DNA of 51,909 nucleotides, counting the filler, from Barthelona sp. PAP020 (taxonomy: Eukaryota): assembly GCA_040182905.1 (NCBI GenBank). It is 2 parts of 2 records of this genome, joined end to end, with 100 filler letters (N's around TTAATTAATTAA, not from the genome) between each part and the next. Parts side by side here need not be neighbours in the genome. Positions count along the whole stretch, not along the records: positions 1 to 25,934 come from JARQWU010000141.1; 1 more part is not named here. The stretch is one strand, 5' to 3'. Positions within the stretch are counted from its first letter, which is position 1; each line of letters begins with the position of its first letter. Below, piece after piece: positions 2,788 through 50,230 of this stretch. The notes under the pieces were generated by a model. It worked only from the letters and a program-made list of their open reading frames with translations, ran no database searches and was not told the DNA's origin. Both the position numbers and the translations under genes were made by a program.

Positions 2788-4012
2788 TTAATCAAAAAGA
2801 TCACTGTCACTATTTTCATAAACATCGCATACATCACTTTGTTCATCCATAAACGAATACATATTACCACCATTGGCCTCATTAACATCCACTAAATCCC
2901 AACATGTATCGATAATCCAATTATACTCCTCTTCATGAATAAATATACCTGCAGCCACTAATTTTCTAATGATTTGGGGATCAATATTCATAGATATGAG
3001 ATTCGATAACACAAAACATCCATTCTTTGATAATTCGACAAGGTTTGATTGATGGACAGGGTCATAAGAAAAAACTATTGGACATATCCTAATAGCGTCA
3101 TTGGAACTTTTTCCCCATGCCATTTGGGTCCTGTCTGGTGAAACAGCTAAAGAAAAAAACGCATGTTCACAACCAGAAAAGACCTTTTGAATCTCTTGAA
3201 AGGTTTCAATATTGAATGACGTAAGATAACCATCTCCAGACATAACAAGTAAGATAGTTGATGTGGGAAAATTAAGGGAATACACTTGACCTCCCATGTT
3301 GTATGTATGCATGAGTGACCCATCGTCCCAATTCCAAAGTTTAACTTTGTTTGATTCATCACCAACGGCAATAATTCTTTTGGTTGGATGGAAGTTTAAG
3401 GCTGAAATACTGGCATCATGATCAAATGTGTGAACAACAGTGAAAATATCAGTGTTAACTAACTTAGCAGTTCTATCACCACTGCCAGATAACAAATATT
3501 TACCATCTGACGACAGCTTTACACGCCAAATCCAGCTGGAATGAACTCTCTCTTCCAAAACAACATCACCACCATTTATATCCCTTTTCAACAAAGTTAT
3601 CTTCACCCCCAGAATATATATAATTGGAGCATGATGAAAAATAAATGTCATAAACAACATAATGATCGCTCAAAGTACGCAAAATTGAAAAATCTGGAAG
3701 GCTGTATATGATAATATTACAATCAGCAGAACAAGTTGCCAACTTTTGTCCATCTGCTGAAATAGCAAGCCCATAAACACCATCTGTATGATCATTCAAA
3801 GTGCGAATCAGTTTTTGGGTTTTCACATCAATTATATATACTTCTTTATAAGTGCTTATCACCAAATATCTACCATCTGAGAAATATTCACAATCGAACA
3901 TGTTCGCAGAAAGTATATTTTCAATTTCCTTAACACTGCTTTCATCAATCATTAAAATGAGCTCGTCGTAAATACTTTTCCGCATCAAATCACTATTTGA
4001 CCCAACAGACAT
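2788..4012 (-). pseudogene. WD40-repeat family member with one frameshift (~3585); pseudogene or sequence error
   Basis: ORFs 3566..4216 (from MSVGSN, ATG 4012) and 2788..3660 are the two halves of a protein colinear with the intact paralog at 40382-41596; the frame switches at YSGGEDNFVE/KRDING. Confidence 0.8.
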
Positions 4013-16761: not shown

Positions 16762-17149
16762 GTGTTCGTGTCAAAGCGGACGGATTTTACGCAAAAGAGA
16801 ATATAAATGTGTTTAAGGTTTCTCTTGCAATTTCTGATATTAATGGGTATCAAAATTGAAAAGCTCAAGTAATAATAAACGTAATCGTAAGAATTCAAAG
16901 ATTAAGGATATAAGCAAATAAATTAGGTCAACAAAGAATATCAAAATCCTACAAAGAGAACATAAGTGGAAACATTTAAAGTGAATCAAGGGGCTAAACA
17001 AAAGTGTTACACTTTTCTTTAAATACCCGCCCCATCTAAACCGGAAGCATTTTTTTTCTTTTTAAGAGTGTTCTGAACCATCCACGCAAAACGACTCAGT
17101 TGCAAGTACCCCCAAACTTTAATCGAGACAATAAAGGTCTTTATAAGCA
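16762..17149. repeat. Diverged direct repeat unit 1 (~390 bp)
   Basis: Shares ordered blocks with unit 2: GTGTTCGTnnCAAAGCGGACGGAT, TCTTGCA..TTCTGAT, CGCCCC, T-tract, GTTCTGAACCA(A)TCCAC, CAAGTA..CCCAAACT. Confidence 0.8.
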
Positions 17150-17160
17150 TTTATTATTAT

Positions 17161-17515
17161 TGTGTTCGTAGCAAAGCGGACGGATAAAGACAAAATAAAC
17201 ATTGTTCTAGGTTCTATTCTTGCACTTCTGATTGTCAAATATGATCCAATACATATACAATAATATATAATTAGAATAAGAACGTTAAACAAGCTGTAAG
17301 TAAAGTAAAAATTAGTTTCCAATCAGAATTATCTTAATTTGGAACACAATGAAAGAACTTGAATTTATCTGATTGATAAATGTTAAGTTTCGCCCCGGGA
17401 AAGAACCTTCCTTTTTTTTTTATAGGAGAGTTCTGAACCAATCCACACACAACAGACCAGTGACAAGTAACCCAAACTCTAACCTTGAACAGTGAAAGCT
17501 TTTATCAAATGTTCA
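17161..17515. repeat. Diverged direct repeat unit 2 (~355 bp), TG...CA ends
   Basis: Same blocks as unit 1, offset 400 bp at the start and 360 bp at TTCTGAACCA; flanked by TTAT on both sides. Confidence 0.8.
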
Positions 17516-17639: not shown

Positions 17640-17711
17640 TGCCTCGCCCGAGAATCGAACTCGGCTTTCCACATTATGAGTGTAGCGTCCTAACCGCTAG
17701 ACTAGCAAGGC
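17640..17711 (-). tRNA. tRNA-Met (CAT), elongator type
   Basis: GCCTTGC TA GTCTAGCGGTTAGGAC G CTACA CTCATAA TGTGG AAAG CCGAG TTCGATT CTCGG GCGAGGC A, then TTTTT terminator; G1-C72 and TTC T-loop argue against initiator. Confidence 0.9.
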
Positions 17712-17877: not shown

Positions 17878-17924
17878 TTATTTCCAAGCCAAGAAGCACT
17901 GTGCGTATGAGTGAATAAAAAAGA
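17878..17924 (+). repeat. 3' inverted terminal repeat of the DIRS-like element
   Basis: TTATTTCCAAGCCAAGAAGCACTGTGCGTATGAGTGAATAAAAAAGA, exact reverse complement of 21741-21787. Confidence 0.95.
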
Positions 17925-17966
17925 ATAGTGTTTATTTGGTTAAAGGCTTTCGAGGCCCATTGTTCC

Positions 17967-18006
17967 TAACCAAATAAACTTCACTCAGCACAGGTTCCTA
18001 TTCTTT
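17967..18006. other. Internal complementary region (ICR-like) of the DIRS-like element
   Basis: 17967-17979 pairs with 17930-17942; 17980-17993 with 17899-17915 (3-nt bulge); 17998-18006 with 17920-17928. Confidence 0.75.
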
Positions 18007-20861
18007 CAAAAGTTCCCATAGCTTAGAATAGCATCATGGGATGAGTGTCCCAATTCTTCACGAATAACGGACAATGCTTTGTCCCTGGACATACCCTCTG
18101 TTATCAGTTCACGGAATCGCTTCTGTGCAAATGAACGACGAAAGTCGTGGGGTTTAATTCCCAGCCCTCTCAGCTTTGTTCGAACCCTTCTAATTAACTT
18201 AGTGAATTCCTTTTCGGTAGGTATATGATTAAAGCATAGGTATGGAGCACAGTCGTGCCTTGTCATAATCATTTGTTGGATGAGTTCCCCTTGTGGGGAT
18301 GATATGCCCAGGAGAGGGATCTTTTTGCAAACCCTTCTTGATTTTAAGCCCTTTGCGTCATCATCTGTTGCGCAAATGATGGAGAGCGATAGATCGGTGT
18401 TGATCTCTATTTTGTCTTTGCCAAACATGGGATTGCGAGTTCTTACTGCCTCGCCAATTCTTGCCCCTGTGAGTAGCATTACAGCAATTACTGTCATAGC
18501 TTGGTCGTCCCAAGTTCTTCTCTTTGAGCCCCAATTTAAGATGAATTGAGCATTAAGCTCACCAAAGGCTCCTTCTTTGATTATTTTAGGCGCTGCTCTG
18601 CTCGACGCCAGGCTTCCAATTGTTCTTCTCGTTGCTGTTAGTAGTGGATCTCCTATGATTCTTCTAAACGCGTCTGGCGCTTCTGTTTTGGCTGTTGCTA
18701 AGATCCCTGATAAATAATTCCTCATGGTCTGAGGTTGTATGTCTTCCTCCCGCAGATGCTGCAGGAACTGGAGAATGTGATCAATATTGATCTCTTTGAA
18801 TTTAAAGGCGTGCTTACGTTCCTTCATGAAGGTAATGAACCTTCGAGTTACTGAGGTATAATTGTCTCTCGTGGTCTTCTTTGTCGAAGCCATCAGGAAC
18901 TCCTTTGCCTCCTTGGAAAGGCCGGATATTTGTCCAGTGTTTGTCCTCTTTGTCTGTAGCCAAAAGGACAATGGGCTGTTTTCGATTCCGACCTTATGTC
19001 GAATTGTTGCTTCGGGTCGGTTTGACCTGAACGATTCCTTTAGCCAATCTTCTACGATATGTATTTGGCTTCCTTCTAAGTAAAGATTTCCCTCGTCGTC
19101 CGTAATTGTCGGGAGAGGGACAATGAAGTTACCTTTTCTCTTCCTAAAAGAGCCGTGTCCAATGGATAGCCTAGCTTGCTCTTGCATCTCTGGTGGTAAC
19201 TTTTCTACATTTGTGATTCTTGGGGCAGGATGAATCCTCCTCATGAGGTTTCTGCTCCCTTCCTTCTGTTGGTTATTTCGACCATCAATGACTGCCTGCC
19301 TTCTTGCTGGGCCTCCTGTCTTTGGTCTTCTCGTTGCTCCTCCTGGTATCACTTCCGGCCACATTCCGGGGTTGGCCAGGGGGTCATAAAATGATTTTGG
19401 TGTCTGTGGAGGAATTGTAATCATTGCGGGTAACTTTTGCTTGCCGCTATTTTCTCCATCATAATTCTTTTCTCTTGATAAGGCGTCTGCTATTATGTTT
19501 TCCCTTGTGCTGATGTAACGCACTTCTAAAAAGACACCTTCTTCACGGGCGAACTTTCTTATTTCTTGCCCTTCTTCGCTTAATGCCTGGCTCTTTGCCC
19601 GGCCTTCTAATGCTGCGATTGCGTTTTTGTTGTCGCAGTAAATTAAAATATTCGAACCCATGGGTAAATTTGGGGTTACGGCCTTGACTGCTGATCCCAC
19701 GGTTCTTAATTCTTTTAGGGCGATTGTTTTGCCCTCTTGTTCTCCGAATTTTAACGTTTGACCGGAGTCAAACACAATACATCCTGCTCCATCCATTGAC
19801 GCGTCTGTTGCGATGACGATGGATCTCGGTTCTACCGACAGTGGGATTGGTTTTATTCTTGCCAACTCAGTCGGGATATTTCTAACGATCTGCTCTGTCT
19901 CTGTCGTCAAGCGGATTCTCTTGGATTTTTCCTTGCTCTTATTTCCTGCCAGTAATCTGGCTACTCTTGTTTTAGTAATGTATAAGTCCTTATGAAAAGT
20001 GAAGGCGAATTCTAAATATCCGCTTAACTTTTGAATGTCTCCTATGGTTGTAGGATTTTTGAAATCCTGACAAAACTGTGCTAACTTGGCTCTCTTTGTT
20101 TGCTGTAGGATTACCAATGCCTCGTTTTCACCAAAGAGGAATGTCCATCCTCTGAAGTCAATTATCTTAGTAGGAGAGAGCCTTGATTTCTCAATATTTA
20201 TTTTCAAGTTTGCATTCTTAAACAGGGCGATAGTGCTTTCCACTGCCCTTCTTACTTCTTGTTGTGATTTGCCGACGATTAAAATATCGTCCAAATAGTA
20301 CGTTATCTTGATTTGCTGTCTCCTTAAGTGTCTTACCAATACACTCATCATTGAGGAGAAATAACTTGGTGCCACGGCTAGTCCGAATGGCAATTTCTTA
20401 GCTTCAAAAGGTTCCTCATCGAACCTGACACCCATCAATCTATAGTATTGTGGGTCCATTTGCATGTGATGATAGCCATCACTTAAATCTAAAGACGCTG
20501 CATAACGTGCGCCTTTGAAGAAAAAGGGGTCAATTGGTTCATACTTAAATGGGTATATGGGAGCCAATTGGTTTGATTCTCTAAAATCTGTGATGGTTCT
20601 TAATGACCCATCCGCTTTTGGGACGAAGAACACATCTGCCTCAACGCTTGGCTCTTCGTTATGATTCCATTTCTTTACTGCGCCCGAGTGGACTAGCTTC
20701 TCGAAAGCAAGTCTCTTGTCCTCGGTTAACTCATTGTGAGTGTGATTACGTCTAATACGTAATCCTTTCTTTGATTGTTCTACTGGCACTCCCCTTACAA
20801 TAGCACTGAGGAGTTCTCTTTTTGCCCCTAGTTCTTCAAAGAGTAGGGGGTTGAGCCCCAT
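18006..20861 (-). CDS. Fused reverse transcriptase - RNase H - tyrosine recombinase polyprotein (951 aa)
   Basis: RT: FFVPKADGSLRTITDFR, LDLSDGYHH, LPFGLAVAP, YYLDDILI. DIRS-type RNase H: IATDAS, KELRTV, YCDN, NIIADALSR. YR: core-binding helices (TRDNY..RF, TMRNYLSGI), GARIGE, PHDFRR, LGHSS, terminal Y. Confidence 0.95.
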   Translation of the reverse strand: MGLNPLLFEELGAKRELLSAIVRGVPVEQSKKGLRIRRNHTHNELTEDKRLAFEKLVHSGAVKKWNHNEEPSVEADVFFVPKADGSLRTITDFRESNQLAPIYPFKYEPIDPFFFKGARYAASLDLSDGYHHMQMDPQYYRLMGVRFDEEPFEAKKLPFGLAVAPSYFSSMMSVLVRHLRRQQIKITYYLDDILIVGKSQQEVRRAVESTIALFKNANLKINIEKSRLSPTKIIDFRGWTFLFGENEALVILQQTKRAKLAQFCQDFKNPTTIGDIQKLSGYLEFAFTFHKDLYITKTRVARLLAGNKSKEKSKRIRLTTETEQIVRNIPTELARIKPIPLSVEPRSIVIATDASMDGAGCIVFDSGQTLKFGEQEGKTIALKELRTVGSAVKAVTPNLPMGSNILIYCDNKNAIAALEGRAKSQALSEEGQEIRKFAREEGVFLEVRYISTRENIIADALSREKNYDGENSGKQKLPAMITIPPQTPKSFYDPLANPGMWPEVIPGGATRRPKTGGPARRQAVIDGRNNQQKEGSRNLMRRIHPAPRITNVEKLPPEMQEQARLSIGHGSFRKRKGNFIVPLPTITDDEGNLYLEGSQIHIVEDWLKESFRSNRPEATIRHKVGIENSPLSFWLQTKRTNTGQISGLSKEAKEFLMASTKKTTRDNYTSVTRRFITFMKERKHAFKFKEINIDHILQFLQHLREEDIQPQTMRNYLSGILATAKTEAPDAFRRIIGDPLLTATRRTIGSLASSRAAPKIIKEGAFGELNAQFILNWGSKRRTWDDQAMTVIAVMLLTGARIGEAVRTRNPMFGKDKIEINTDLSLSIICATDDDAKGLKSRRVCKKIPLLGISSPQGELIQQMIMTRHDCAPYLCFNHIPTEKEFTKLIRRVRTKLRGLGIKPHDFRRSFAQKRFRELITEGMSRDKALSVIREELGHSSHDAILSYGNF

Positions 20862-20889
20862 TCGGCTCTCATCTTTCTGTATAATAACA

Positions 20890-21570
20890 TTACTTCTTCT
20901 CCTTTCCGCTCTCGCCGTGCCGCGGAGCTGACTGCTCCCTATTTTTATTCTTTTCTTTCGAATTTGAGGGTGTTTTCTTTATAGCAGGGAGTTTCCTAAA
21001 TAGAGTCGCTTCTACCCCAACAGCGTCTGCAAAAACGCTTTGAAACTCATATACATATCCAAATAACTTGGTTTGTCTTCCCTGTCCTAGTTGTAGGTGA
21101 ATTGACATCATGAACTCCTGGAATTCATCTTCAGAAAGATTCTGACCACACCAAAACACAAGTTCTATCAGATCTTGTAAATGGCGCATGGCCGCATTGG
21201 CATAACTCAAGCGTAGTCTGGGGTAAAATGTTTCCCCCTTCTTTTCGTCTAACTCTAAGCTTTGTTCCATAATTTTTCCTCTAATCTTGGAGGTCACACT
21301 CATGTTTCCTCCTCTATTCTTATCCATCAGAAGCTGCATCAACATATTTTGATTTCTTCTGAGTTCTTCCAAGGTTTCGAATGGAACCTGAACAAAATGT
21401 TTTCGCCCTTGGGCATCTCCCTTTGCATTACTAGCCAATTCTTCCTCCTCGACTTCTTCTTCCTCGTCATCCTTATTATCCTCAATGGATCCTTGATCGA
21501 CGGTCTGCAAATCTTGCACAAAGTCCGCATATTCGGCCATGTTATCCTTGTTACGTTTCGCTGTAGACAT
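20890..21570 (-). CDS. ORF1 (gag-position) of the DIRS-like element
   Basis: 226-aa ORF between the 5' ITR and pol; acidic N-terminus, basic C-terminus; assigned by position only. Confidence 0.75.
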   Translation of the reverse strand: MSTAKRNKDNMAEYADFVQDLQTVDQGSIEDNKDDEEEEVEEEELASNAKGDAQGRKHFVQVPFETLEELRRNQNMLMQLLMDKNRGGNMSVTSKIRGKIMEQSLELDEKKGETFYPRLRLSYANAAMRHLQDLIELVFWCGQNLSEDEFQEFMMSIHLQLGQGRQTKLFGYVYEFQSVFADAVGVEATLFRKLPAIKKTPSNSKEKNKNREQSAPRHGESGKEKK

Positions 21571-21740
21571 CTTAATATTCTAAATCTTTAAAATTTTGCT
21601 TTTACAAAAATACAAAAAAAGTGGGAAAGGATAATTTTTCCAAAATTTTCATACTTGTTGAGAAAAATTCATTTGCAGCATCACATTTTCTGAGTTTACT
21701 TTCTTTGTAAATAAATATTGTTGTTTCACAACTTGATCAA

Positions 21741-21787
21741 TCTTTTTTATTCACTCATACGCACAGTGCTTCTTGGCTTGGAAATAA
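21741..21787 (-). repeat. 5' inverted terminal repeat of the DIRS-like element
   Basis: Exact reverse complement of 17878-17924. Confidence 0.95.
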
Positions 21788-48599: not shown

Positions 48600-48730
48600 T
48601 TATTTCCAAGACAAGAAGCACCATGTGTATACGTAAATAAGAAAGAACTATGTTAATTTGGCTAAATCTTTTGAAGGTTTGATTGATCTGTTAAAACTTT
48701 CAATTTTTCAGAAGTGAAAGTTAAAACTTT
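48600..48730 (+). mobile_element. Degenerate orphan ITR of the DIRS-like family
   Basis: TTATTTCCAAGACAAGAAGCAC...AAAGAACTATGTTAATTTGG...GATTGATC aligns with 17878-17957 and 50113-50230. Confidence 0.75.
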
Positions 48731-50112: not shown

Positions 50113-50230
50113 TTATTTCCAAGCCAAGAAGCACTGTGCGTATGGTGAATAGAAAAGAATAGTGTTTATTTGGTCAAAAGCTTTCGAAGCCTGATTGAAC
50201 ATTCAATTCTCCAAAAGATAAAATTAAAAC
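50113..50230 (+). mobile_element. Orphan ITR of the DIRS-like family (close copy)
   Basis: First 32 nt identical to 17878-17909; one deletion and four substitutions over the 80 nt matching 17878-17957. Confidence 0.9.

Follow-up and report, generated by a model that had tools for sequence, protein, structure and literature searches.

A probable DIRS-order retrotransposon in the metamonad Barthelona sp. PAP020 with reverse transcriptase, RNase H and tyrosine recombinase in a single reading frame

Introduction

Tyrosine recombinase (YR) retrotransposons are the least understood order of retroelements, and their classification leans on the architecture of their repeats and on the presence of a methyltransferase (MT). 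Here we describe an element of this kind in a stretch of 51,909 nucleotides from the genome of Barthelona sp. PAP020 (assembly GCA_040182905.1), hereafter called the window. The interval 17878-21787, on the minus strand, is very likely an intact and transcribed YR retrotransposon of the order DIRS, which carries inverted terminal repeats (ITRs) of 47 bp, a gag-like open reading frame (ORF1), and a second one (ORF2) where reverse transcriptase (RT), RNase H, a conserved spacer and the YR follow each other in one frame.

Four groups are recognised in the order, as described in the literature (PMC6681497, PMC9210276, PMC3783388, PMC4157794). DIRS-like elements combine ITRs with an internal complementary region (ICR), carry an MT and encode the YR in a separate or overlapping ORF. 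PAT-like elements have split direct repeats, an MT and the YR in a separate ORF, and Ngaro-like elements share the split direct repeats, have no MT and place the YR after RT and RNase H (RT/RH). In VIPER-like elements, also with split direct repeats and with no MT noted, the YR lies upstream of the RT. The element described here has ITRs without an ICR, no MT, and a YR fused behind RT/RH. It belongs to the order DIRS by definition, since a retroviral-type RT/RNase H is accompanied by a YR instead of a DDE integrase and a protease, but each of the four recognised groups is defined by some feature that was looked for and that the element does not have. A first-pass annotation of the window had named it DIRS-like, a term that holds in the broad sense of the order and not in the narrow one, as the element has neither ICR nor MT.

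Three enzymes in one reading frame

ORF2 (18006..20861, minus strand) encodes 951 amino acids, and ORF calling, Pfam and the comparison with paralogues all agree on the uninterrupted frame that the first-pass annotation had proposed for RT, RNase H and YR. The RT covers residues about 70-300 (19962..20654, minus strand), with D125 in motif A and Y189-L-D-D192 as motif C. Pfam RVT_1 matches residues 116-240 with an E value of 3.7e-21, and the YLDD motif read earlier is borne out by an alignment of 131 RT/RH sequences, in which D125, D191 and D192 are each conserved in 130 of 131 and Y189 in 121. The RNase H (residues about 340-469; 19455..19844, minus strand) gives a weak match to Pfam RNase_H (E 0.14), and its predicted D-E-D-D set is conserved in the same alignment: D353 and D410 in all 131 sequences, E384 in 130 and D459 in 127. 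Many of the aligned relatives show PF17917 or PF17919 at this region.

Between RNase H and YR lies a spacer of about 180 residues (470-650; 18912..19454, minus strand), which had been described as a linker rich in proline and arginine. The composition is as described: in the N-terminal half, proline makes up 16% and arginine 11% of residues 479-560. The word linker falls short, because conservation is on a par with that of the enzyme domains: 67% identity versus 65-72% for the enzymes in a paralogue that is 69% identical overall, and 31% versus 26-42% in another that is 32% identical. These identities mark the spacer as a functional region. Another transcript fragment, P0158, shares 65% identity with residues 570-652. 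The spacer matches no Pfam family, its best score in an Atlas look-up (0.77) is not meaningful, and its comparison by hhalign with the Dam tails of 29 DIRS-type pol proteins returned a probability of 0.1%. Dam methyltransferase, rve integrase and protease families were all absent from the Pfam scan of ORF2, in line with the lack of a recognisable MT domain noted at first. Nor is there a long overlapping ORF on the opposite strand, as had also been noted; the longest one opposite ORF2 has 89 amino acids (18280-18549).

The YR fills residues 651-951 (18009..18911, minus strand) and has the two parts that define its superfamily, a SAM-like core-binding domain and a catalytic domain with the R/K/HxxR/H/Y signature. 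The SAM-like N-domain was found by Pfam at residues 657-721 (PF13495, E 2.5e-8; PF13102, E 2.1e-6). The catalytic set, which had been reported as complete, consists of R801, K840 (or K837), H905-x-x-R908, H939 and Y948, and R801, K840, H905, R908, H939 and Y948 are invariant in ORF2 and in the 69% and 32% paralogues, each representing a different family. The last 309 residues match the NCBIfam models XerA (E 3e-10), XerC (E 6.1e-7, over positions 19-300 of the 309) and XerD (E 1.2e-5). The scores of 29-40 bits are far under the equivalog cut-offs of 220-335, so the protein should be seen as a member of the superfamily and not as a Xer recombinase. A language-model feature search with residues 640-951 returned only integrase/YR clusters, with a score of 0.98. 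ORF2 does not match PF00589, even at E<=10, and sequence searches of the PDB with the YR region and with its alignment found no recombinase.

Relative to known YRs of the Xer/Cre type, the likeness extends to both domains and to the R..K..HxxR..H..Y residues, with XerC aligned nearly end to end, whereas the YR of the element is fused behind an RT/RNase H and a unique region of 180 residues.

Ends, repeats and composition of the element

The bounds of the whole element (17878..21787, minus strand; 3,910 bp) come from its inverted repeats, self-BLAST of the window and base composition, and agree with the compact size of about 3.9 kb estimated before. The 5′ (left) ITR (21741..21787, minus strand), with the outer tip TTATTTCCAAGCC, is 100% complementary over its 47 bp to the 3′ (right) ITR (17878..17924, minus strand), which ends in GGCTTGGAAATAA; complementarity ceases at the inner and at the outer edges alike. 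The GC content is 0.42 in the element versus 0.29 in 10 kb of flanks, and at third codon positions it reaches 0.43 in both ORF1 and ORF2 versus 0.21-0.25 in two host genes.

The same letters that end the right ITR close two other fragments in the window, both detected by self-BLAST. One is an isolated 3′-terminal piece (50113..50191, minus strand) that derives from this element or from a sister of it, 94% identical to element positions 3831-3910 and ending exactly in GGAAATAA. The other (48600..48666, minus strand) is an older isolated 3′-terminal fragment, 81% identical to element positions 3844-3910, also with GGAAATAA at its end. This terminus is therefore found at three independent sites, the element and the two fragments, and since both fragments stop at the same letters, the 3′ boundary of the element is independently fixed.

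The two fragments have the same orientation and lie about 1.45 kb apart. They share about 130 bp at 72% identity, a similarity that reaches further upstream than the match of either one to the full element, and two additional short colinear patches. They may be the tails of an older or non-autonomous relative.

Repeats of the kinds that typify the known groups were searched for inside the element. The longest internal match to the tip-to-tip junction of the ITRs has 8 nt, there are no direct repeats of >=20 nt within 17878-21787, and direct matches of the terminal 100 or 150 nt to the element reach 12 nt at most. With no longer internal copy of the junction and no direct repeat of >=20 nt, the element has neither an ICR nor split direct repeats.

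The last 133 nt (17878..18010, minus strand) form a predicted terminal stem-loop. In it, the inner two thirds of the right ITR are paired with the 3′ untranslated region (UTR), and the pairing encloses a perfect 13-bp hairpin with arms at 17930-17942 and 17967-17979 (minus strand). The outer ~13-20 nt of the ITR are left mostly unpaired in this fold. Its stability was compared with that of shuffled sequences both as DNA (-22.2 kcal/mol, z -4.51) and as RNA (-40 kcal/mol, z -4.63), and it was equalled by 0 of 200 shuffles in either case. The homology of the two isolated fragments to the full element begins within the loop of the 13-bp hairpin.

ORF1

Upstream of ORF2, from which it is separated by a gap of 28 nt, an ORF call places ORF1 (20890..21570, minus strand), with 226 amino acids. 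Its product is acidic at the N-terminus and basic at the C-terminus, has no zinc finger and matches no Pfam family at E<=0.01. The two ORFs are in different frames, ORF2 being +1 relative to ORF1. The frame of ORF2 stays open for 38 codons before its ATG (20862-20975, minus strand) and overlaps the end of ORF1 there. This overlap makes a +1 frameshift product joining ORF1 and ORF2, in the manner of a gag-pol protein, conceivable.

Expression and conservation of the fused frame

Proteins derived from a transcriptome recorded in EukProt as Barthelona sp. PAP020 match both ORFs. P0003 is a complete ORF of 951 amino acids, 100% identical to ORF2, and belongs to isoform i2 of the Trinity gene DN3295_c3_g4. 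P0293, also 226 amino acids long, agrees with ORF1 at 219 of 226 residues (97% identity); it is the.p2 ORF of another isoform, i3, of that gene, so that ORF1 and ORF2 are co-transcribed. Moreover, as the ORF1 protein is only 97% identical while the ORF2 protein is identical, at least two slightly different copies are expressed. An element that the first-pass annotation had considered possibly active is thus probably so, given its intact ORFs, its perfect ITRs, the identical transcriptome protein and the expressed 97% variant of ORF1.

A full HMMER search of ORF2 against 1.84 billion representatives gave 21,083 matches at E<=1e-3, just two of which cover the whole protein. Both of them, P0004 and P0123, come from the same transcriptome. 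P0004 (69% identity) is N-terminally incomplete and colinear over residues 133-951, and P0123 (32% identity, 967 amino acids) is colinear over residues 17-950. Neither is broken at any point, and the three sequences align without interruption through RT, RNase H, spacer and YR; two diverged families have thus kept the fused frame. P0123 matches PF00589 at 3e-5, which is under the Pfam cut-off.

The same transcriptome holds a second group of RT-RNase H-YR fusions, P0197 and P0265, of about 1,200 amino acids. They show RVT_1 and a canonical PF00589 (at 2e-15 and 1.2e-6, respectively), and hhalign aligns the family of ORF2 with them colinearly, residues 66-931 to 273-1158, with a probability of 99.9. 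They carry an additional N-terminus of ~270 residues, possibly a gag fused in frame; the N-terminus of P0197 is not similar to ORF1. It seems that YR retroelements with a single ORF have undergone a small radiation in this organism.

Other searches were less productive. A word-indexed search with the alignment of spacer and YR recovered only the known 69% paralogue. When metagenomes were scanned for 26 nt taken from the ITR, there were 0 matches; a scan with the family alignment gave 183 pattern matches, with 0 of them confirmed by tblastn.

Placement among reverse transcriptases

The domain content of the closest relatives was obtained by a Pfam scan that covered 131 of the 150 best matches; the other 19, mostly very long proteins, were P0004, 5 from the first batch and 13 from the second. 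A Dam MT follows RT/RH in 29 of these 131 proteins, and a LAP2alpha gag domain occurs in 3; two are Ty3-like by their protease or gag, and none has an rve integrase. Four combine an RT with a YR, namely P0123, P0197, P0265 and P0153, the last of them a gene model from another eukaryote.

Sequences that cover >=330 of 426 query positions were kept for phylogenetic analysis, which left 123 of the 148 other listed matches, all three members of the family and, as outgroup, 5 of the 10 Ty3 candidates. Trees were built with FastTree on these 131 rows and with IQ-TREE, under a PMSF mixture model, on 38 chosen rows. ORF2, P0004 and P0123 group together with a support of 99 in FastTree and 100 in IQ-TREE, and are joined by P0197 and P0265 with a support of 98 in FastTree and an SH-aLRT of 94 in IQ-TREE. 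The branch that separates the RTs of YR type from the Ty3 outgroup has a support of 100 in both trees, and the clade of five proteins diverges at the base of a radiation with Dam-bearing pols dispersed all through it. The RT/RH of ORF2 is thus placed among the pols of DIRS/PAT type rather than those of Ty3/gypsy, the references being database proteins that carry domain labels instead of names. Together with its four fused relatives, the element probably constitutes a separate lineage of the order, so far seen only in this organism.

Discussion

Several other origins can be proposed for this element. It could be a divergent Ngaro-like member whose split direct repeats were remodelled to short inverted repeats, with the fused frame as the in-frame state of fungal Ngaros. 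The Ngaros of fungi and of Cafeteria burkhardae indeed share with it the order of gag-like, RT/RH and YR regions and the lack of MT, protease and DDE integrase (PMC9210276, PMC8547959, for gene order and absent MT), and two papers report a YR in frame with RT-RH for all fungal Ngaro groups (PMC3783388) and homoplasy of repeat types among YR elements (PMC4157794). Such an origin is nevertheless unlikely in our view. Ngaros have split direct repeats arranged as A1-[ORFs]-B1-A2-B2 (PMC8547959, PMC9210276), whereas the element has 47-bp inverted repeats and no direct ones; those of Cafeteria measure about 6 kb and encode the YR in a separate ORF3 (PMC8547959), against 3.9 kb and a fused YR too diverged for PF00589. 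In addition, the best RT/RH matches are rich in pols of DIRS/PAT type with a Dam MT (the 29 of 131 scanned), and it is at the base of that Dam-rich group, not beside any MT-less set, that the five proteins branch off, in a tree that includes no named Ngaro.

A second origin would be the reduction of a DIRS1-like element, which would have kept its ITRs, lost MT and ICR, and merged an overlapping YR ORF into the pol frame. ITRs are a hallmark of DIRS1-like elements (PMC3783388, PMC6681497), and integration by a YR is common to the element and to Dictyostelium DIRS-1 or Xenopus DIRS-37_XT. Its nearest RT/RH relatives include many Dam-bearing pols of DIRS/PAT type, together with LAP2alpha-gag pols like those of Xenopus DIRS-like elements, and an ICR-type arrangement could have left its trace in the part of the 3′ UTR that is paired with the inner right ITR. 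On the other hand, the descriptions of DIRS1-like elements (PMC9210276, PMC6681497) give them ITRs of at least about 120 bp, an ICR that is complementary to both ends of the element, a Dam-like MT that follows RNase H, and a YR ORF that is separate and in most cases overlaps, while this element has a fused YR, ITRs of 47 bp and no ICR or MT. Nothing internal is complementary to its ITR tips beyond those 8 nt, the spacer bears no trace of an MT, and the clade is not nested with support in any Dam-bearing subclade; a reduced DIRS1-like element is therefore improbable as well. Far less credible still is that the locus is a host-domesticated gene or an artefact of assembly or annotation. The window contains one full copy, flanked by host genes, which speaks for either of these, but the perfect ITRs, the gag-like ORF upstream, the foreign base composition and the two terminal fragments nearby all speak for a mobile element, and so do the several diverged expressed families, the 97% variant of ORF1 and an identical 951-aa protein from an independent transcriptome.

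The interpretation of the locus as an intact and transcribed YR retrotransposon, and as part of a separate lineage, is weakened by a number of observations. The AlphaFold2 model of residues 470-951, built on a 3-sequence alignment, is poor (pLDDT 48.6), and although YRs account for almost all of its top Foldseek matches, these are weak (E 9e-3 at best, TM about 0.2). The YR part alone shows no significant similarity by hhalign to the YRs of P0197, P0265 and P0153 (E 0.033, probability 1.5%). ORF1 is called gag-like by its position only, a single full DNA copy was the basis of the examination, and the identity of the ITRs may be a product of the replication mechanism rather than a sign of youth. 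For the lineage, the SH-aLRT of the five-protein clade under the better model stays below 95, its long branches warn of long-branch joins, and the references are proteins labelled by domain content instead of named DIRS1, PAT, Ngaro or VIPER elements. The panhandle and junction-site steps proposed below are conjectural.

Under the preferred reading, that of a YR retrotransposon, a replication cycle can be outlined. By homology with the rest of the order, the RNA of the element would be reverse-transcribed by its own RT/RNase H, possibly with the 3′ stem-loop as a recognition or priming structure, and a double-stranded and probably circular cDNA would be inserted through site-specific recombination by the YR. 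With a single frame and no encoded protease, ORF2 likely acts as one polypeptide, and its product of 951 amino acids may work unprocessed, RT and YR being parts of the same molecule, as the first-pass annotation had supposed. A cDNA that is missing one tip could be repaired through the panhandle pairing of its own inverted ends, a route suggested by ITRs that are identical to the very tips and by the absence of an ICR; this repair would also keep the ITRs identical. Finally, a circle joining the ITR tips would make a perfect palindrome (...CTTGGCTTGGAAATAA joined to TTATTTCCAAGCCAAG...) that might offer the YR a lox/FRT-like site. More tentatively, and with more doubt than confidence, the element and its four fused relatives could represent a fifth YR retrotransposon lineage, at the level of a superfamily, whose host is a metamonad of deep branching. 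Both cDNA synthesis and integration would there fall to a single RT-RNase H-recombinase polypeptide, and short perfect ITRs would replace ICRs or split repeats by means of panhandle self-templating and a palindromic tip junction.

The fusion of RT and YR, taken by itself, is no novelty for the class. Precedents are found in Muszewska et al. and in Ribeiro et al. 2019 (PMC6681497), who report that in two TATE copies of Bodo saltans the gag-like, YR and RT/RH regions are all encoded by a single ORF. The fusion is thus rare, not unprecedented. The VIPER/TATE elements of kinetoplastids resemble the element in being YR retroelements whose hosts are protists, not the well-sampled animals and fungi, and, in B. 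saltans TATE, in having all coding regions joined in one ORF (PMC6681497), but their YR lies upstream of RT/RH and their repeats are split and direct, whereas here the YR is C-terminal, the gag separate and the repeats inverted.

The lineage itself does appear to be undescribed, as the first-pass annotation had suggested: no account of it was found in the literature searched, although Goodwin & Poulter 2004 and Poulter & Butler 2015 may describe fused forms. A literature search, judged by titles and abstracts, likewise yielded no description of a YR retrotransposon from Metamonada. DIRS1-like elements in Excavata were regarded as uncertain by Piednoel et al. 2011 (PMC3266345), and the main text of a barthelonid genome paper (PMC11316075) does not mention retrotransposons, reverse transcriptase or recombinase.

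The element mixes features that are used as diagnostic, with ITRs of DIRS1 type, the lack of an MT as in Ngaro, and neither ICR nor split repeats, and this mixture supports the view, put forward in PMC4157794, that the structural characters of YR elements are homoplasious. Being only 3.9 kb long and apparently active, it offers a very compact system for studying how ends are regenerated without an ICR, whether recombination takes place at a circle junction, and whether an RT and a recombinase can function in one protein. Builders of DNA-writing tools may also take an interest in a natural RT that is linked physically to a site-specific recombinase.

Genomic surroundings

The full element is situated between host genes. 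A tRNA-Met gene (anticodon CAT; 17640-17711, minus strand) lies on the same strand, 166 bp past its 3′ end. Targeting of tRNA genes was considered and set aside, since this is one tRNA-Met near a single full copy and neither terminal fragment is near any tRNA. The intergenic DNA between the tRNA-Met and a WD40-like ORF contains two pairs of repeated segments, one of 73 bp (17052-17122 and 17412-17482, 81% identical) and one of 24 bp (16762-16785 and 17162-17185, 92% identical). Rfam reports no family for these segments at its gathering score; they recur 360-400 bp apart, in the manner of a tandem duplication.

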